DNA of 64,000 bases from Pseudomonadota bacterium (lineage in GTDB: Bacteria; Pseudomonadota; Alphaproteobacteria; SHVZ01): assembly GCA_016195085.1 (NCBI GenBank), contig JACQAG010000071.1, positions 63,093-127,092 on the forward strand, read 5' to 3'. This document shows, piece after piece, positions 5,702 to 60,990 of the stretch. The stretch's first letter is position 1; every line of letters begins with the position of its first letter. The notes under the pieces were generated by a model. The model was given only the letters and a program-made list of their open reading frames with translations. It was not told the origin of the DNA and did not search any database. Both the position numbers and the translations under genes were made by a program.

Positions 5702-6697
5702 CTAAGCGCGTGCGCTGGTTTTGAAGCGCCGCGCCTCGGTTGGGTTGACCGCGAATTTCGGCATCTCGCCGGCGAGGATCTGGCGCACCTGATCCACCGT
5801 GTCCTGCGCCTGGGATTCCATGGAATCCGGCACCATGCCGCCGATATGCGGGGCCGCGATGACGTTGGCAAGCCGGCCGAGCTTGACCGGCGGAATGTCG
5901 TCTGGCTCGTTGCCGACATCAAGCGCGGCACCGGCGATGCGTTTCTCCCGGAGCGCCGCCACCAGGTCGTCTTCGATCAGCACCGGCCCGCGCGAAGGGT
6001 TGATGAGGAAGGCGGTCGGTTTCATGCGCCGGAAGAAGCCGGCATTCAGCATTCCCTCCGTCTCCTTGCTGTGCACCGCGAGGCACAGCACGAAATCGGC
6101 TTCGCCAAGCAGACGATCGAGATCGACGAGCAAGACCGCCGCCGCCGCCGTCTTGGCATAGGGGTCGTGCACCAGCACGCGCATGCCGAGGAAGGCCAAG
6201 ACGTCGGCCATGCGCCGGCCGAGATTGCCATAGCCGATGACCCCCGCGGTCTTGCCGGCGAGCTGGATGCCCAGCCGCTGCTCGGGAATGCGTCCGGCGC
6301 GATAGGCGGCGACATAGTCGGAGGTACCGCGGGCGAGATCCACCATCTGGCCCAGGAGCAGCTCGACCACGGCGGGGATGAAGCCCGGTCCGGCACGCGT
6401 CACCAGCACGCCGGAAGCCGAGGCGGCGGGCACATCGATGTTGCGGATATCCATGGCGTTGCGAACCAGCGCGATGAGCCGCGGCAGACCTTGGAACAGG
6501 TGGGCGGGCGCCGGCGTCAGCCGGTCGGAGACGATGATGGCGCAGTCCCGGGCGCGCTCGATCAGCCTGTCCGGCGCCAGGATGTCGTCGGTCTCGTTGA
6601 GCGCGAGCGTGCCCAGGGCCGCAAGCCCGGCAACCGCCTTCGCGCCGTATTTCTGCTCGCGCATCGTCTTTGGATGCGTCAACAAGATGCCAACCAT
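5702..6697 (-). CDS. D-isomer-specific 2-hydroxyacid dehydrogenase (glyoxylate/hydroxypyruvate reductase-like)
   Basis: NAD-binding GKTAGVIGYGNLGRR; catalytic region LINPSRGPVLIEDDLVAALREKRIAGAALDV...PHIGG. Start taken at MVGILLT (6697); the ORF extension upstream to 7582 is low-complexity. Confidence 0.75.
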   Translation of the reverse strand: MVGILLTHPKTMREQKYGAKAVAGLAALGTLALNETDDILAPDRLIERARDCAIIVSDRLTPAPAHLFQGLPRLIALVRNAMDIRNIDVPAASASGVLVTRAGPGFIPAVVELLLGQMVDLARGTSDYVAAYRAGRIPEQRLGIQLAGKTAGVIGYGNLGRRMADVLAFLGMRVLVHDPYAKTAAAAVLLVDLDRLLGEADFVLCLAVHSKETEGMLNAGFFRRMKPTAFLINPSRGPVLIEDDLVAALREKRIAGAALDVGNEPDDIPPVKLGRLANVIAAPHIGGMVPDSMESQAQDTVDQVRQILAGEMPKFAVNPTEARRFKTSARA

Positions 6698-14656: not shown

Positions 14657-15595
14657 ATGAAGACCTCTCCGGTCGCGCTGGCCGATCTGTCGAACTCGGT
14701 CATGGCCGTATTGCCCCTGGGGCGCCATGGCGATCTGTCGATCGACAAGCCGGAGAACACCCGGCTCATCCGCCATGTGGAAGCCGGCGGCGTCAGCACG
14801 CTCCTCTATGGCGGCAACGCCAATTTCTATCATGTCGGCCTCTACGAGTTCGCCGGCATCCTCGATTTCCTGGCGGAGGCCGCAGCACCGGGAAGCTGGG
14901 TCATTCCCTCCGTCGGTCCGGATTTCGGCAAGATGCTGGACCAGGCCGACGTGCTTAGGAGCCGCGCATTTCCGACCGCCATGGTGATGCCGCCGGCCGC
15001 GCCGATGACCCAGGCCGGCGTCGAGGCGGGGGTGCAGAGCTTCGCCACGCGCTTCGGCCGTCCGGTCATCCTCTATATCAAGAGCGAGGGCCAGATCGCG
15101 CCCGAAGGTGTGAAGCGCCTCGTCGATGCGGGCGTGATCGCCGCGGTCAAATACGCAATCGCCCGCTCCGATCCGAAGGAGGACCGGTATCTCCAGCGCC
15201 TGGTCCATCTCATCGACCGCAAGAGCATCGTCAGCGGCATGGGCGAGCGGCCGGCGCTGGTGCATATGCGCGACTTCGATCTCGCCGGCTTCACTTCGGG
15301 CTCGGTATGCATCGCGCCCCGCAGCGCGCGGGCGATGCTGCAGGCTTGCCGGCGCAAGGACTGGGCCGCGGCCGAGCGGCTGCGCCAGTTCTTCATCCCG
15401 CTCGAAGATTTCCGCGAGAAGCTCAGCTTCATCACCGTGCTGCACGAGGCCGTGACCTTGTCGGGGATTGCCGATATGGGCGTGGTGTTGCCGCTCTTGA
15501 GCAATCTCGAGCCGCAGCATCACTTCGCGCTGAAGAAGCTGGTGACCGCGCTCATCGCTTCCGATCGGGCGGCAGCCGCGGCAGCGGCGGCCTGA
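14657..15595 (+). CDS. DHDPS/NAL-family protein, possibly 5-dehydro-4-deoxyglucarate dehydratase (KdgD-like)
   Basis: DapA-family fold by sequence feel (GVSTLLYGGNANFYHV...VKYAIAR). Assignment to KdgD is inference from the adjacent uronate dehydrogenase. Confidence 0.55.
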   Translation: MKTSPVALADLSNSVMAVLPLGRHGDLSIDKPENTRLIRHVEAGGVSTLLYGGNANFYHVGLYEFAGILDFLAEAAAPGSWVIPSVGPDFGKMLDQADVLRSRAFPTAMVMPPAAPMTQAGVEAGVQSFATRFGRPVILYIKSEGQIAPEGVKRLVDAGVIAAVKYAIARSDPKEDRYLQRLVHLIDRKSIVSGMGERPALVHMRDFDLAGFTSGSVCIAPRSARAMLQACRRKDWAAAERLRQFFIPLEDFREKLSFITVLHEAVTLSGIADMGVVLPLLSNLEPQHHFALKKLVTALIASDRAAAAAAAA

Positions 15596-15596
15596 G

Positions 15597-16397
15597 ATGG
15601 CGGCAAAGCCGATCCTCTTGACCGGTGCGGCGGGCGCGCTCGGCCGCTATCTCCGGCCGAAGCTGATCGAGGCCTATGGCCGCTTGCGCAGCGCCGACAA
15701 GGTGAGCTTCGCGCCGGCGCTCAATGGCGAGGAGCAGGTCGTCTGCGACCTCCACGATCTCGCGGCGGTCGAGCGCATGGTCGAGGGCACGGAAGCGATC
15801 CTGCATTTCGGCGCCTATTCCGTCGAGGCCGATTGGGAGACGATCCTCCACTCCAACATCATCGGCACCTACAACGTCTTCGAGGCGGCACGGCGCAAAG
15901 GTATCAAGCGCCTGGTCTTCGCCTCCTCCAACCACGCCATCGGCTTTCACACCGTCGAGACCAGGCTCGATGCCACCTCGCTGCAGAAGCCGGACAGCTA
16001 TTACGGCGTCTCCAAGGCGTTCGGCGAGGATCTCGGCAGCCTCTATGTCGACAAGCACAACCTCGAGGTCGCCTGCCTCAGGATCGGCTCCTGCTTGCCC
16101 GAGCCGAAGGAGGCTCGCCATCTCTCGACCTGGCTCAGCTATCCCGATTTGCTTCGCCTCATCCAAGCTTGTCTGGAGGCGCCGTTCCTCGGCTTCACCA
16201 TCATGTACGGCATGTCCAACAACACCAGAAGCTGGTGGGACAATTCGCTCTCGCCCCATGTCGCCTACCGGCCAGAGGACAATGCCGAGACCTACGCCAA
16301 GCAGATCCTGAGCCATGGCGATCCGCGGCCGGAAGGCGATCCGGCGCGCCGCTTCCATGGCGGCCCGTTCACCAGCGACGGCTACGTCCGGCGCTGA
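15597..16397 (+). CDS. udh: Uronate dehydrogenase (NAD-dependent epimerase/dehydratase fold)
   Basis: Strong resemblance to Agrobacterium/Pseudomonas Udh: LLTGAAGALG, VFASSNHAIGFH, YGVSKAFGEDL, RIGSCLPEP, STWLSYPD, WWDNS. Start 1 bp after the upstream stop. Confidence 0.75.
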   Translation: MAAKPILLTGAAGALGRYLRPKLIEAYGRLRSADKVSFAPALNGEEQVVCDLHDLAAVERMVEGTEAILHFGAYSVEADWETILHSNIIGTYNVFEAARRKGIKRLVFASSNHAIGFHTVETRLDATSLQKPDSYYGVSKAFGEDLGSLYVDKHNLEVACLRIGSCLPEPKEARHLSTWLSYPDLLRLIQACLEAPFLGFTIMYGMSNNTRSWWDNSLSPHVAYRPEDNAETYAKQILSHGDPRPEGDPARRFHGGPFTSDGYVRR

Positions 16398-16819
16398 GCT
16401 CAAGCACCGCGCTGATTCGGTCACGAGTGTTCCTCTGGCCCGATTGAGATGCCGGCCGAAGCGCCGGCGGCAGTCCGCGGGGCCGCCTCCCCCATGCTTT
16501 TGCTGCTCTGCCAGGCCGGGCCTTCGCGGGCGCAACATATGCTAGCCTGCAATGCTCACCCGCTATTCCTAGTAGGTCGGACAATGCTCGACAGTTTTTG
16601 GTAAAACTCGTGCATTAATCAAGTAACCATCGGCAAGCGTCCCGATAGGCGACAACCTTGATCGGACTAAGAAAATTCATCCGTTTTTCTTGAAGAGAAT
16701 TAGTTGAACAGATATAAACCTCGAAATGGGGTGTCACCTGTTTCAGTTGTTCAGCCGGTAATAGTTGAAACCTTCCGGTGCAGCGGGGCAGTGCGGATGT
16801 TTGACGAGGTTGTAGCCTG

Positions 16820-18142
16820 ATGGGCGGTGTGGCGGGGCAGCAGAACGAAGAGCCGAAACGGTTCGTCAGGATCGACGACGACGCGCTCAAGGACGCCCTC
16901 GACTGCCATCTGCGCTTCATCAAGGGTGCGCGCGGCGGACGGCGCGCGACCCTCGCCCGGCGCGATCTTTCGAACCGCGACCTGACCGGGGTCAATCTCG
17001 CCGGCGCCGATTTGACCGGGGCCAAGCTCGCCGGCACCAAGCTTACCCGGGCCGCCCTGGCCAATGTCATCCTGTTCGGCGCCGATCTGCGCTCCATCAC
17101 CGCGCAAGGGATTGACCTGACCAAGGCGGATCTGCGCGGTGCCTGCCTCAGCGGCGCCGATCTCACCAATGCGATCCTGACCGAAGCCGACATGCGCGAG
17201 GGCGAGGTAGCTTATGTCGAGGAAGGCGACCTCACCACGAACCGGCAGAAGCTCACCCCCTCCGACATGACGGCCGCGGTGATGCGGCGGGCGGATCTGA
17301 GCCGCGCCCGCTTCTCCAAGGCCTCCGGCGCGCAGGTCGATCTGAGCGACGCGGTGCTGCGCGGCGCGCGCATGAATGGCGCCGATTTGCGCAACGCCAA
17401 TTTGACCGGCGCCATCCTGGTGCAGGCGGACCTGACCGATTCCAATTTGAGCGGCGCCACGTTGTTCGGTGCGGTTCTGACCGACTCGACCTTGACCCGC
17501 GCCGACGTGACCGGCGCCAAGCTGTTCGGCACCATCATGAACGGCGACATCAGCAAATCCGGCGCCAAGGGCACGCCGGTGAAGCCGGGAACGCCGCCGC
17601 CGAAGCCGATCGCCGAGATGATCGCGGCGCACCTGGAATGGGTGGAATCCGGCGGCGCCAAGGGGGTCCGCCTGGAGCTTCCGGGCGCCGATCTGAAGGG
17701 TGCGGATTTCCGCGACGCCAACCTCGCCGGCGCCAAGCTCACCGGGGCCGAGCTGGCGCGCGCGAATTTCAGCGGCGCCAGGCTGCTTTTTGCCGATTTC
17801 GGCTTCTGCGACATGCGCGATGCGAAGCTGCGTCGCGCCGATCTGCGCGGCGCCGATTTCAGCCGCGCGTTTGCTGGCGGCGCCGATCTGAGCGAGGCCA
17901 TCCTCGGGCTCCATGGCAAGGGTTCGAGCGATCCGGTGAGACCGACCAAGCTCACCAAGGCCCGGCTGTGGAGCGTGCGCCTCAAGGGTGCGCATCTCTG
18001 CCGCGTCGATTTGAGCGGCGTCGACCTGACCGGCGCCGACTTGACCCAGGCCGATCTGCGCGAAGCCGATCTGCGCGGCGCCACGGTGACGCCCGAGCAG
18101 CTGGCGGTGGCGATCACCACCCTCTCCGGCACCGCCGACTGA
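16820..18142 (+). CDS. Pentapeptide-repeat protein (two large repeat blocks, 440 aa)
   Basis: Dozens of A(D/N)LxG-type pentapeptides (ADLTGAKLAGTKLTRAALANVILFGADL...). Each repeat block is preceded by an HLxW/FxxSGG helix. Confidence 0.8.
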   Translation: MGGVAGQQNEEPKRFVRIDDDALKDALDCHLRFIKGARGGRRATLARRDLSNRDLTGVNLAGADLTGAKLAGTKLTRAALANVILFGADLRSITAQGIDLTKADLRGACLSGADLTNAILTEADMREGEVAYVEEGDLTTNRQKLTPSDMTAAVMRRADLSRARFSKASGAQVDLSDAVLRGARMNGADLRNANLTGAILVQADLTDSNLSGATLFGAVLTDSTLTRADVTGAKLFGTIMNGDISKSGAKGTPVKPGTPPPKPIAEMIAAHLEWVESGGAKGVRLELPGADLKGADFRDANLAGAKLTGAELARANFSGARLLFADFGFCDMRDAKLRRADLRGADFSRAFAGGADLSEAILGLHGKGSSDPVRPTKLTKARLWSVRLKGAHLCRVDLSGVDLTGADLTQADLREADLRGATVTPEQLAVAITTLSGTAD

Positions 18143-18201
18143 TCTCCGCGAGGCGGCGATCGGCGCCCGAGATGCGCGGACTTTAGGTTGAATTCCATAT
18201 A

Positions 18202-18217
18202 TTAATCAAACGTTAAG
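18202..18217 (+). promoter_or_regulatory. CtrA-box-like motif TTAA-N7-TTAAG upstream of the PilZ gene
   Basis: TTAATCAAACGTTAAG located 70-85 bp upstream of the ATG at 18287. A GTAACCAT 8-mer-like half-site also occurs at about 16624..16631, upstream of the pentapeptide gene. Confidence 0.3.
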
Positions 18218-18286
18218 CGGGTTACGCGAGCATGTCCGTATGACCTCCGAGAAGCGGAGGAGTGGTGACGGCATTGCGAGGTAGCC

Positions 18287-19102
18287 ATGGCGGTAGCAGT
18301 ACAATCCGCGCAATCGCGCCAAGAGCTCGAGCAAGCGCTGGTCAAGCGGGCCGAGGCCGAGTTCGAGAAGATGATCGGCGATGCGGCAAACGGCAATCCC
18401 GATGCCGTCGAGCGCAAATCCAACCGTGTGGCCGAGATCGCCAAGGACAAGGCGTTCCCGATGGCGCGGCGAAAGGAGTTCCAGGACCGCTGCAAGCTCT
18501 TGCTGCGGCAAGCCTACGAGATGAGCGTGAATCTCTTTCTCGACGACGCCAATGGTGCCGTCAGGGCGGGCGACGAGGAGCGCAAGAACAAGCTCATCAC
18601 CAAGGCCAAGGAGCACTACTCCATGGCGCTGCGCGCCGGCGCTGATGAGGACTTCAAGCTCGCGGTCAAGCGCAAGCTGGAGATGATCGGCATGACCAGC
18701 CCCGCCGGCACCAGCGAGAAGGCGAAGAAGGCGGCTGAGGACGAGGCGGCGAAGCCGCAGCCCGTCTCCAAGGCTCCGAACGGGGTCGAGCGCCGACGCG
18801 CCATCCGCTACAACGATCCGCTGGTCACCGCGACCATCGCCGGCACCAGCTACAAGACGGTGAACTGGTCGATCCGCGGCCTCTTGATCGAGGCCTATCA
18901 GGGTCCGCTGGCGGTCGGCGACAAGGTCACCATCGGCGTCTCTTGGGAAGGCAGCAAGGAGGCGGGGCTGTCGCCGGCGCGCGTCGTACGCCGGGACGCG
19001 GAAGCCGGCCTGATCGCCGTCGAGTTCAACGGCATCGACGGCAACATGCTGCGTTTGGCCCACGCCATGCGCCTGCAGGAGATCGCACCCTCGCCGGAAT
19101 GA
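18287..19102 (+). CDS. PilZ-domain protein with N-terminal Lys/Glu-rich helical domain
   Basis: C-terminal PilZ signatures RRRAIRYN (RxxxR) and NWSIRGLLIE (D/NxSxxG); GAGGTAG SD before the ATG. Confidence 0.65.
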   Translation: MAVAVQSAQSRQELEQALVKRAEAEFEKMIGDAANGNPDAVERKSNRVAEIAKDKAFPMARRKEFQDRCKLLLRQAYEMSVNLFLDDANGAVRAGDEERKNKLITKAKEHYSMALRAGADEDFKLAVKRKLEMIGMTSPAGTSEKAKKAAEDEAAKPQPVSKAPNGVERRRAIRYNDPLVTATIAGTSYKTVNWSIRGLLIEAYQGPLAVGDKVTIGVSWEGSKEAGLSPARVVRRDAEAGLIAVEFNGIDGNMLRLAHAMRLQEIAPSPE

Positions 19103-19791
19103 GCGCGCTCGAGCGCTGGCGGCGGAGGATCGGCGGGACCCAGCTTTGCTACGGTCGCGCGGCCATGGAGCCGCACGCCGTCAGCCATCTCCCGCATGCC
19201 GGCGATCATGACTTCGACCGAGGCCTTGTTCGAGGCATGGTCGCTGTTGCCGCCGAGCCAGACGAGCGCGGCCAGGCCGAACAGCCCCAAGACTTCCCGA
19301 TCGAGCTGCATGAGCGCCTCACCGTCGCCCGCAGCGATAGGCCGCGCCACCCCGCGGCTCGAACGGACGCCGCGGGGACTTCCCCCGAGCTCCGCTGCCG
19401 ATGCCACGCGGAGCCGCCGCTCGCCGGCACCCAAAGGCGCGGTACGCGGGATCGGCTCCGGCGCGGTGCCTTCACCCGGGTCGGAGGCCTGTATCAGCAC
19501 CGCCCACGAGACGGCGGATCGCTTCTTCGCCGCGGGCGCATCGGCCACGGTCGAGGCGGTCGAGAGCACGAGCATCAACAGCAGTGATTCGACGAGCCTC
19601 CTTGCGAGGATGGCGCTGCCAGCCATGTGCGTTCCCCCCCGGGCATCCCTCCGCACAGTGGCGATCCGATGTTCTGAGTCGAATGCACCTCACGACGGGT
19701 AGACGGCGATTGCGTATCTCCCCGACTGTCCCCACACGGTCTCGTCTCCAGATGCGCTGAGTCTAAACCTGGCCGCCAGCGAAATATGCGT

Positions 19792-21003
19792 TCAGGCGAG
19801 ATCGGTGCGCCGGACGATCGCGTCTTTCCGCTTGGCCACGTCGGGCTGCAGCCTGGTGCCGAGACCGGCGCCCGACATGGGATGGACGTAGCCCTCCTTG
19901 ACCAGGGGAAGCTCGGTCAGCAGCTCGCGATACCAGCTCGTGAGATAGGCGCGCACCACCTCCTGCATGAGGGCGTTGGGCGCGTTCAAGGAGAGATGCA
20001 CCGAGGCCACCAGCACCACCGGGCCGGTGCAATCATGGGGTGCTACCGGGCGCTGATAGGTCTCGGCCAAGGTCGCGATCTTCTTCGCCTCGCTGATGCC
20101 GCCGCACCAGGACAGATCCAGCATGACGATGTCGGTCGCCTGCGCCTCCAAGAGGTCGCGGAAGGCAGAGCGGGTGGCCATGGTCTCGCTGGCGCAGACG
20201 GGAACGCGGGTGCCGCGGCGGAATTCGGCGATGGCGGCGACGTTGTCCATCTTGATCGGATCCTCCGCCCAGAACGGCTGGAACGGCTCGAGGGCCCGGG
20301 CGATGCGGAGTGCCGCCGGCAGGTTCCACATCGAGTGCATTTCGCACATGACGTCGATCCTGTTGCCGACGGCCTTGCGGATCTTGGCGAAGGGCTCGAG
20401 GCCCTGATCGAGCTCCGGTCCGGAGATGTAGGTGCCGCCGGATCGTTCCGCATAGGGATCGAAGGGCCAGATCTTCATCGCCGTGAAGCCCTCCTCGATG
20501 AGGCTGAGCGCCAGCTCGTCGGCGCGGTGCACGAAGGCCTGCTGGTCCTCATACGGCCCTTCGGCGGCGGCATCCTCCTTGCTCCAGGCGGCGATCTCGC
20601 GGCGCTGCGCCGAGCGGGCGTTGTAGGTGTAGCCGGCGCAGGTGTTGTAGACGCGCAAGCGGTCGCGCGAGAGGCCGCCCAGAAGCTGGTGGATCGGCAG
20701 CGAGACCGATTGGCCGAAGAGATCCCAGAGCGCGATGTCGACCGCCGAAGCGCCACGGGTCTCGACCGAGCTGGAGGCGAAGCCGAGATAGCCTTGCAGC
20801 AGGTGGCGCGAATGCGCCTCGATGCGCAGCGCATCCTTGCCGAGGAGGTAGGGGGCGACCTGCGCATGCAGGTAGGCCGCCACCGCGTCGGCGCCGCGGA
20901 AGGTCTCGCCGAGGCCGACGAGGCCCTGATCGGTGTGGAGCTGCACCCATAGGATGTTGGGGAACGAGCGGAGCTGGATGGTCTCGAGCGCGGTGATCTT
21001 CAT
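19792..21003 (-). CDS. Enolase-superfamily protein (mandelate racemase/muconate lactonizing family; ManD/DgoD-like sugar-acid dehydratase)
   Basis: MKITALETIQL...GLVGLGETF N-terminal capping domain; barrel-domain metal ligands (DVMCEMHSMW, FWAEDP, CASETM); 403 aa. Confidence 0.8.
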   Translation of the reverse strand: MKITALETIQLRSFPNILWVQLHTDQGLVGLGETFRGADAVAAYLHAQVAPYLLGKDALRIEAHSRHLLQGYLGFASSSVETRGASAVDIALWDLFGQSVSLPIHQLLGGLSRDRLRVYNTCAGYTYNARSAQRREIAAWSKEDAAAEGPYEDQQAFVHRADELALSLIEEGFTAMKIWPFDPYAERSGGTYISGPELDQGLEPFAKIRKAVGNRIDVMCEMHSMWNLPAALRIARALEPFQPFWAEDPIKMDNVAAIAEFRRGTRVPVCASETMATRSAFRDLLEAQATDIVMLDLSWCGGISEAKKIATLAETYQRPVAPHDCTGPVVLVASVHLSLNAPNALMQEVVRAYLTSWYRELLTELPLVKEGYVHPMSGAGLGTRLQPDVAKRKDAIVRRTDLA

Positions 21004-60060: not shown

Positions 60061-60432
60061 CTACTGGCGGCCCAGCACTTTGCTGACCGCGGCGACCAGC
60101 TCGCTCGGCCTGAACGGCTTTTCGAGGGTGAGGGTGGCACCTGACACCTTCGCCAGCTTGAGGAAGTTCATGAGCTTGGCGCCGGTGTTTCCGGACATGG
60201 CGATGATCGGCACCGAGGGATCGAAGGCGCGCATGGCGCGGATCGTCTCGATGCCCTCGCGATTGGGCATGATGAGGTCGGTGACGACGACGTCCGGGCG
60301 CGCCTGCTTGAATTGCTCGAGCCCGAGCTGGCCGTCCGCCGAGGTGCGGATGACATGACCTTCACGGCTCAACACCTGCGCGAACAGCCGGCGCGCTGCC
60401 GCATCATCGTCAATCACCAGGACCGAAGCCAT
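60061..60432 (-). CDS. Single-domain response regulator (CheY-like receiver)
   Basis: VLVIDDD...D(54)-equivalent VVVTDLIMP...conserved T/S and K (EKPF); 123 aa. Confidence 0.85.
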   Translation of the reverse strand: MASVLVIDDDAAARRLFAQVLSREGHVIRTSADGQLGLEQFKQARPDVVVTDLIMPNREGIETIRAMRAFDPSVPIIAMSGNTGAKLMNFLKLAKVSGATLTLEKPFRPSELVAAVSKVLGRQ

Positions 60433-60990
60433 GTCAGGTGCGTCTCTCGAGACTACAAGGACTCTGTCGTCATTCTACACGCGCCAGGACCGAGAGCGCC
60501 GATGCCACGCTCAATCCGGCGAACGCCGGGAACGCATCGGCGCCCATCATACGCCCTGGCGGGGTTGACGCTAGCTGGCCGCTTTCCATGCGCGCCAAGG
60601 CGCATGTTGATGGCAGCCCATATTCCGCAACGGGAAAATAATGTTTATTTGCACTTTGAGGTAATAGTTAAAATCATTCGATCTTGCCGTAATTTTGACT
60701 GTTGCTGCCTAACGCAGGGACAGGATTTGTCTGGTTAATTGTTAAGCTTTCATGGGCATCGATGATCGCCGGGGGTGCGGGCGGTCCGATCGAAGGCACC
60801 CCCCCCCCCAAAGCGGCGGCGAAGCGGTCCGGGAACGGCTTTGCGGCCAAGAAAACCCGGGCCTAAATGCCCGGGCCTAAAGGATTGACCCGGGGTCGCC
60901 GGTGGCTATTATCCCGGCTCCGCGCGCGGGGGCCCCCTCCGGGTTGGTGAGGGGCGCCCGCGGCGCTTTCATTTATGAAGACGGCATCCC

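Follow-up and report, generated by a model that had tools for sequence, protein, structure and literature searches.

A PilZ-family protein with a helical N-terminal domain, its CtrA-type promoter motif and an apparently independent pentapeptide-repeat neighbour

Do two adjacent genes in a 64-kb stretch of an alphaproteobacterial genome (contig JACQAG010000071.1; the whole stretch is called the window below) form one functional unit? The first encodes a 440-aa pentapeptide-repeat protein and the second, co-oriented and 144 nucleotides (nt) further on, a 271-aa protein with a C-terminal PilZ domain. An earlier reading of the letters (the sequence-only reading) had taken the two for a module linked to the cell cycle or to cyclic di-GMP (c-di-GMP), each gene behind a leader resembling a binding site of the regulator CtrA. 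Comparison of homologous loci points elsewhere. The best explanation as a whole, held with moderate confidence, is that the two are independent neighbours with promoters of their own: the first would encode a scaffold, and the second a c-di-GMP receptor probably under CtrA control.

Gene contexts of the pentapeptide and PilZ families

Loci of the PilZ family were gathered by an exact-protein look-up (7 loci), from species-representative genomes (33 loci) and from metagenomes (22 loci), with up to 6 kb of flank; labels such as L001 to L055 denote fetched homolog loci. A phmmer search with the pentapeptide protein as query against the six-frame open reading frames (ORFs) of 68 fetched loci, about 50 of them distinct PilZ loci, matched a single PilZ locus, L048, and otherwise only the pentapeptide loci themselves. 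From the epimerase to the nitrilase gene, L048 and the window are colinear, with genes 82-88% identical in DNA; L048 therefore belongs to the same lineage and provides no independent occurrence. Its PilZ and pentapeptide proteins are 87% and 84% identical to those of the window, the latter over 440 aa; the next best pentapeptide homolog reaches only 42%. Both ORFs are present in the window as the sequence-only reading had them (Table 1), and in comparison with L048 both genes are real and under purifying selection: differences by codon position number 62/40/141 in the pentapeptide gene and 26/16/79 in the PilZ gene, and start codons and lengths are identical.

No pentapeptide gene lies beside the PilZ gene, within the flanks of up to 6 kb, at L004, L005 and L049 (PilZ proteins 72% identical to that of the window), at L001 (69%, over the N-domain) or at the remaining PilZ-family loci. 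The order at these four loci is a 123-aa response regulator, a small minus-strand ORF and the PilZ gene. More distant members adjoin chemoreceptors, HrpB helicase and nif genes, an ion channel and others, so that the contexts of the PilZ homologs differ, each from every other. For P0005 (77% identical) the gene table holds only a partial co-oriented gene that ends 107 nt upstream of the PilZ gene. Clustering of neighbours across the PilZ-family loci, made noisy by spurious ORFs in high-GC DNA, revealed no partner conserved across clades. The gene after PilZ at L004 (1702-3192) encodes a 496-aa protein that matches neither Pfam nor NCBIfam and has no counterpart in the window.

Seven distinct loci of more distant pentapeptide homologs were read for gene context, and a PilZ gene adjoins none of them. 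In Micavibrio and another alphaproteobacterium the homolog is flanked by M16 peptidases (PGI present or not) and MutL; in Caulobacteraceae it lies between a histidine phosphatase and HSP20, and in L008 it adjoins a Crp-type regulator. Since the pairing is found only in the syntenic L048, the two genes essentially never co-occur beyond this lineage, and the proposal of a functional pentapeptide/PilZ module is not borne out. The pair is a chance adjacency in one lineage, and a joint function is not supported.

The promoter regions of the two genes

CtrA of Caulobacter recognises TTAA-N7-TTAAC and the half-site TTAACCAT. The window contains one TTAA-N7-TTAA, against 0.01 expected from whole-window shuffles, which underestimate chance matches in AT-rich DNA. 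As the sequence-only reading had noticed, this perfect box precedes the PilZ gene, with 71 nt between its end and the ATG and 85 nt from its start. The 144-nt spacer is otherwise diverged between the window and L048, and the box lies inside a conserved island. In L001 a box occupies the equivalent aligned position, with the TTAA halves retained, a different N7 and then GCGG as in the window. Across the window, L048 and L001, the N7 reads TCAAACG, TCAAGCG and GGCAGCA, respectively, between two invariant TTAA halves.

The motif extends, in modified form, through much of the family. CtrA-like motifs occur in 33 of 50 unique upstream regions, against 2.4 in dinucleotide-preserving shuffles of those regions, a count that overstates independent events because many of the 33 positive loci come from closely related Azospirillum species. 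Perfect boxes make up 3 of the 50 (window, L048 and L001, at about -85 to -90; 0.075 in shuffles). One-mismatch boxes make up another 8: TTCA-N7-TTAA accounts for seven, which belong to a second clade and lie at -62 to -77, and TTTA-N7-TTAA for the eighth, at -65 (L055). TTAACCA, the core of TTAACCAT, is found in 22 of 50 regions at -74 to -112, and in an Azospirillum lipoferum-like clade TTAACCA(C/T/G) is invariant amid diverged flanks. All of these motifs lie on the coding strand, 51-112 nt upstream of the start, and the three versions are fixed, one per clade, in three clades. That L048 and L001 keep the box, together with the enrichment across the family, supports CtrA control of the PilZ gene, whose transcription probably depends on CtrA at the predicted site. 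Relative to the CtrA promoters of Caulobacter and other Alphaproteobacteria, the window has the perfect TTAA-N7-TTAA and the Azospirillum members have TTAACCA(T) half-sites, whereas the second half of the putative site in the window is TTAAG and not the canonical TTAAC.

Other elements were seen around the same promoters. The A. lipoferum-like clade of Azospirillum (L021, L023-L036, L040) has a further conserved element, GATAAGAAGGC, which precedes TTAACCA by about 70 nt and the start of the PilZ-family gene by about 150 nt. Elsewhere in the window, a 123-aa single-domain response regulator (60061-60432, minus strand) is 49% identical to the regulator that adjoins the PilZ gene in L001 and L005. 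Upstream of it, three one-mismatch TTAACCAT sites fall within 80 nt (60664-60745), including TTAACAATTAACCAG on the minus strand; this region may be another CtrA-type promoter, and the regulator may be a displaced former neighbour of the PilZ gene. An intergenic run of ten C (60800-60809) adjoins this promoter.

The pentapeptide gene is another matter. The sequence-only reading placed each gene behind its own CtrA-box-like leader, which holds for the PilZ gene and fails for its neighbour: no CtrA box with at most one mismatch occurs in the 430 nt upstream of the pentapeptide gene. The only near match in this leader is a half-site, GTAACCAT, at 16623..16630 (7/8). One-mismatch half-sites occur in the window at chance frequency (9 found, 6.3 expected), and the position is not conserved, reading GCAAAAAC in L048. 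A putative sigma-70-like promoter is found in the same leader, with both hexamers and their spacing kept in L048 within an otherwise diverged spacer; a consensus promoter scan missed this promoter, whose second hexamer ends in A. The pentapeptide gene thus appears to be transcribed from a housekeeping-type promoter. Words resembling AGTTGAAC recur in the leader; as L048 does not conserve them, they were dropped as candidates. In Caulobacteraceae, pentapeptide homologs (L009, about 4950; L045, about 3950) have TTAAC about 50 nt before the start, conserved amid diverged flanks (GAAAGGTATCGTTAAC, GAAAGGCGACGTTAAC).

The lower-GC pocket in which the pair was said to sit does not exist as such. Low GC is limited to the two intergenic spacers (0.545-0.60), and the gene bodies, at 0.67-0.685, match their surroundings, so that composition marks no island. 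An Rfam scan of 15500-20500 at E<=1 yielded nothing credible and no riboswitch or small RNA in either leader; the sole match, sub-threshold and to an unrelated family, was snoRNA sR44 (19.5 bits against a gathering score of 45).

The two proteins

The C-terminal PilZ domain proposed for the 271-aa protein, with its RxxxR and NxSxxG motifs, is upheld by the family alignment of 34 members, in which identity falls to 36%. No member departs from R170 or R174, and R171 reaches at least 90% conservation; N193, W194, R197 and G198 are likewise invariant, and S195 is at least 90% conserved. Both decisive motifs are thus present. Pfam PilZ (PF07238) matches at 21.0 bits (E 4.2e-4), and no NCBIfam family matches the protein. 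In the structural model (predicted local distance difference test score, pLDDT, 81), the RxxxR linker has low pLDDT and is flexible, and the predicted PilZ fold agrees with solved c-di-GMP-bound PilZ domains.

The N-domain is the distinctive part. It is helical and charged, as the sequence-only reading had it: six helices are predicted, at pLDDT of about 90, and 160 residues hold 27 D+E and 30 K+R. No Pfam or NCBIfam model covers it, and its structural matches are only generic TPR-like and designed helical proteins. An exhaustive HMMER search matched 44 cluster representatives of 1.84 billion, most of them full-length at about 260-290 aa and anything shorter resembling a fragment, and the domain seems confined to the combination with PilZ. 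The 33 loci in species-representative genomes are mostly from Azospirillum, including A. lipoferum, A. oryzae, A. halopraeferens and A. melinis, and the rest are from Arenibaculum or from Rhodospirillales or unclassified Proteobacteria metagenome-assembled genomes (MAGs). A metagenome scan with the single PilZ protein as query gave no match; repeated with the family alignment, it gave the 22 metagenomic loci. In L001, the PilZ-family gene (6001-6522) stops before the PilZ domain, and its DNA resembles that of the window only as far as residue 185 or so. Either this copy has been truncated or pseudogenised, or it is a form that naturally consists of the N-domain by itself.

Known receptors with a C-terminal PilZ domain (YcgR, MotI/DgrA, PlzD/VCA0042, MrkH, Alg44) show no sequence-level match to the protein. 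The YcgR/MotI type carries a PilZ-like N-domain (10.1101/814665), a beta-barrel (PilZN/YcgR_2/xPilZ), whereas the N-domain here is an all-alpha six-helix bundle without a Pfam match. With Tlp1 and Aer of Azospirillum brasilense, PilZ-bearing chemoreceptors that tie c-di-GMP to motility behaviour (PMC3604760, PMC6406031), the protein has its bacterial group and its second-messenger domain in common. Both chemoreceptors are of the transmembrane methyl-accepting kind and carry PilZ at the C-terminus, whereas the protein here is small and soluble and has no chemoreceptor signalling domain.

The 440-aa protein is built of A(D/N)LxG-type pentapeptides, as proposed: PF00805 matches at 3.1e-68 over 8 stretches, and 27 units of the A(D/N)(L/F/M) type can be counted. 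The right-handed quadrilateral beta-helix expected of such a protein is what AlphaFold2 returns (mean pLDDT 88, predicted template modelling score 0.73), with a short strand every five residues. The two repeat blocks described earlier correspond to two beta-helix domains, each with an N-terminal alpha-helix as cap and joined by a disordered Pro-rich linker (residues 244-262); the shorter third block is absent, each domain being interrupted by one loop. The helix noted ahead of the repeats, with the motif HLxW/FxxSGG, occurs twice, as H30-L-R-F-x-x-G-x-x-G-G and H271-L-E-W-x-x-S-G-G, one ahead of each block, and H30, G39, G40, H271, W274, G279 and G282 are invariant in an alignment of 42 homologs. 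It is one of a large and widespread family of alphaproteobacterial proteins, 420-440 aa long and alike in architecture, with named members in Micavibrio, Caulobacteraceae and unclassified Alphaproteobacteria.

Foldseek places synthetic beta-solenoids first among the matches to the model, followed by solved natural pentapeptide proteins: HetL, Np275/276, QnrB1, AlbG and MfpA. The fold is common to Qnr, MfpA and AlbG (E 1e-8 to 1e-7), but the protein here is twice as long, with two helix-capped beta-helices in one chain, and its net charge is about 0 to +3 where theirs is strongly negative. Counted from the sequence, the whole chain has a net charge of +3, with 0 in helix 1 and -1 in helix 2. 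The NCBIfam scores lie far below the cut-offs for Qnr (82.2/240), MfpA (72.3/360) and QnrB (72.7/460), and the suggestion that the protein acts as a DNA mimic of the Qnr/MfpA/AlbG type was rejected on these two grounds. The cyanobacterial HetL and Np275/Np276 are the best natural fold matches (HetL E 1.0e-12, Np275/276 fusion 6.8e-12) and the best sequence-repeat matches, yet they differ in architecture and taxon, and the HetL equivalog score (168/260) is under its cut-off. Only the short Alr5209 repeat model of NCBIfam is reached, through multiple repeat matches, and orthology to Alr5209 was dismissed for that reason. The protein is probably a soluble, two-lobed beta-helix that serves as a protein-binding scaffold.

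In Micavibrio and an unrelated alphaproteobacterial MAG (L046, 981-7202; L010, 457-8083; L011), the pentapeptide homolog lies between the M16 peptidase pair, with or without PGI, and mutL, and in L010 and L011 the ends of the homolog overlap the adjoining genes. This conserved synteny might be informative on the role of the pentapeptide family.

Upstream of the gene pair in the window lie genes for a molybdopterin-binding subunit of the xanthine-dehydrogenase type, a DHDPS-like protein and an NAD-dependent epimerase. The region's only terminator-like hairpin (GTCGGACAATGCTCGAC then AGTTTTTGG, 16576-16602) lies 180 nt past the epimerase stop; its conservation in L048 is not obvious. Downstream, on the minus strand, lie genes for a mandelate-racemase-type enzyme, a GNAT acetyltransferase and a carbon-nitrogen hydrolase. 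The 690 bp directly 3' of the PilZ gene (19103-19791) hold no convincing gene, and the ORFs at 18898..19656 (minus strand) and 19196..19702 (plus strand) have no Pfam match. L048 has about 1.9 kb at this position, including a minus-strand GDSL-lipase gene, and the stretch in the window is probably a deletion remnant.

Table 1. Features of the pentapeptide/PilZ locus, in window coordinates
Feature	Position	Strand	Basis
Putative sigma-70-like promoter: TTGAAG (16690-16695), 17-nt spacer, TATAAA (16713-16718)	16690..16718	+	Conserved in L048
Pentapeptide-repeat protein gene, 440 aa	16820..18142	+	ORF; Pfam Pentapeptide (PF00805) 3.1e-68
Cap helix 1 (residues 20-35) and beta-helix 1 (residues 43-243, loop 128-148)	16877..17548	+	AlphaFold2 model, Foldseek
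Cap helix 2 (residues 264-276) and beta-helix 2 (residues 283-424, loop 363-375)	17609..18091	+	AlphaFold2 model; internal alignment of the two helix-plus-repeat units
Conserved promoter island ACTTTrGrTTGAATTCyATATATTAATCAArCGTTAAGCGGGTTA	18180..18224	+	Nearly invariant between window and L048
CtrA-type box TTAATCAAACGTTAA (TTAA-N7-TTAA)	18202..18216	+	Only match in the window; halves conserved in L048 and L001
PilZ-family protein gene, 271 aa	18287..19102	+	ORF; 37 homologs found
N-domain, all-helical, six helices (residues 1-156), family-specific	18287..18754	+	
PilZ domain: RxxxR loop, six-stranded beta-barrel (residues 180-247), C-terminal helix (residues 252-263)	18791..19075	+	
RxxxR motif R170-R171-A-I-R174, flexible linker	18794..18808	+	Conservation in 34 members
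(D/N)xSxxG motif N193-W-S195-I-R-G198 on a barrel strand	18863..18880	+	Conservation in 34 members

Alternative explanations and the proposed role of the PilZ protein

Several findings weigh against an independent c-di-GMP receptor controlled by CtrA. The Pfam score of the PilZ domain is under the gathering score of 22.5, only 16 of the 34 family members match Pfam PilZ at E<0.01, and the family profile, compared with the sequences of solved structures, has no meaningful match to any solved PilZ structure. No CtrA motif can be recognised upstream of about a third of the members (L004/L005, L003, L019, L028, L039, L042 and others), and the motif-bearing loci are weighted towards close relatives. 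A chemoreceptor gene is nearby in only 7 of 50 PilZ loci, which makes the motility link weak. No terminator was found between the pentapeptide and PilZ genes, the spacer hairpin being no stabler than shuffles (z -0.32), so read-through co-transcription is possible in this lineage. The sub-threshold score and the lack of NCBIfam and solved-structure matches would suit a degenerate PilZ domain that no longer binds c-di-GMP and works as a nucleotide-independent adaptor, like the Xanthomonas PilZ protein Xac1133. Such a loss of binding is nonetheless decidedly improbable: in a comparative survey, motif loss marks the non-binding PilZ proteins and the PilZ domains of fusion proteins retain binding (10.1101/814665), and the protein here is a fusion with both motifs intact.

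The box itself might be an AT-rich promoter element, UP-like or the site of another regulator, and its TTAAG half, the family members devoid of such a motif and a spacer AT-richer than the genome (0.60 GC), in which whole-window shuffles set the chance expectation too low, all agree with this. It is an unlikely account of TTAA halves and spacing that stay invariant in three lineages despite differing N7, of full boxes and motif-bearing regions that far outnumber those in local dinucleotide shuffles, and of motifs that all lie on the coding strand, 51-112 nt before the start. Least probable is the two-gene module, in which the c-di-GMP receptor would have the beta-helix scaffold as its partner or target, both of them under cell-cycle control. 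Co-orientation over a short spacer without a terminator and the adjacency retained in L048 would fit it, as would the listing of the Caulobacter pentapeptide-repeat protein CC_0350 as a direct, cell-cycle-regulated CtrA target (PMC3073932, Table 2), although Caulobacter has several pentapeptide proteins and CC_0350 is likened to the 440-aa protein by family only. Set against these are the close kinship of L048 to the window, the absence of a pentapeptide gene at every other PilZ-family locus, the 72% and 69% relatives included, the seven pentapeptide loci without an adjoining PilZ gene, a pentapeptide family distributed far more widely than the PilZ family, and the lack of a conserved CtrA motif before the pentapeptide gene.

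With the two genes taken as independent neighbours, a mechanism can be proposed for the PilZ protein by analogy with known PilZ proteins. The RxxxR loop and the NxSxxG strand of the beta-barrel would hold c-di-GMP between them. Its binding would order the linker and shift the helical N-domain relative to the barrel, and the repositioned N-domain would take up or let go a partner protein. CtrA bound at the predicted box would drive transcription of the PilZ gene and so tie the protein to a motility or developmental programme. In the Azospirillum clade, CtrA acts on swarming motility and encystment, and a role as a c-di-GMP-dependent switch in motility, chemotaxis or development is therefore proposed as the most likely one. 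In R. centenum, CtrA is non-essential. The protein may also represent an undescribed class of c-di-GMP effector, with a helical output domain joined to a canonical PilZ domain, and a conserved member of the CtrA regulon, although this broader claim is tentative.

The failure of the pentapeptide/c-di-GMP module spares follow-up effort. What retains interest is a small, well-delimited, tractable and uncharacterised PilZ family, a narrow variant of a known receptor type, with a helical output domain and CtrA-type promoter motifs, which occurs in cultivable Azospirillum such as A. lipoferum, A. oryzae and A. halopraeferens. If the proposal is true, the family would provide a direct molecular link from the CtrA developmental and motility programme to c-di-GMP signalling in the Azospirillum group, some of whose members are nitrogen fixers associated with plants. 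A soluble c-di-GMP receptor controlled by CtrA would join the action of c-di-GMP on chemoreceptors with that of CtrA on swarming and encystment.

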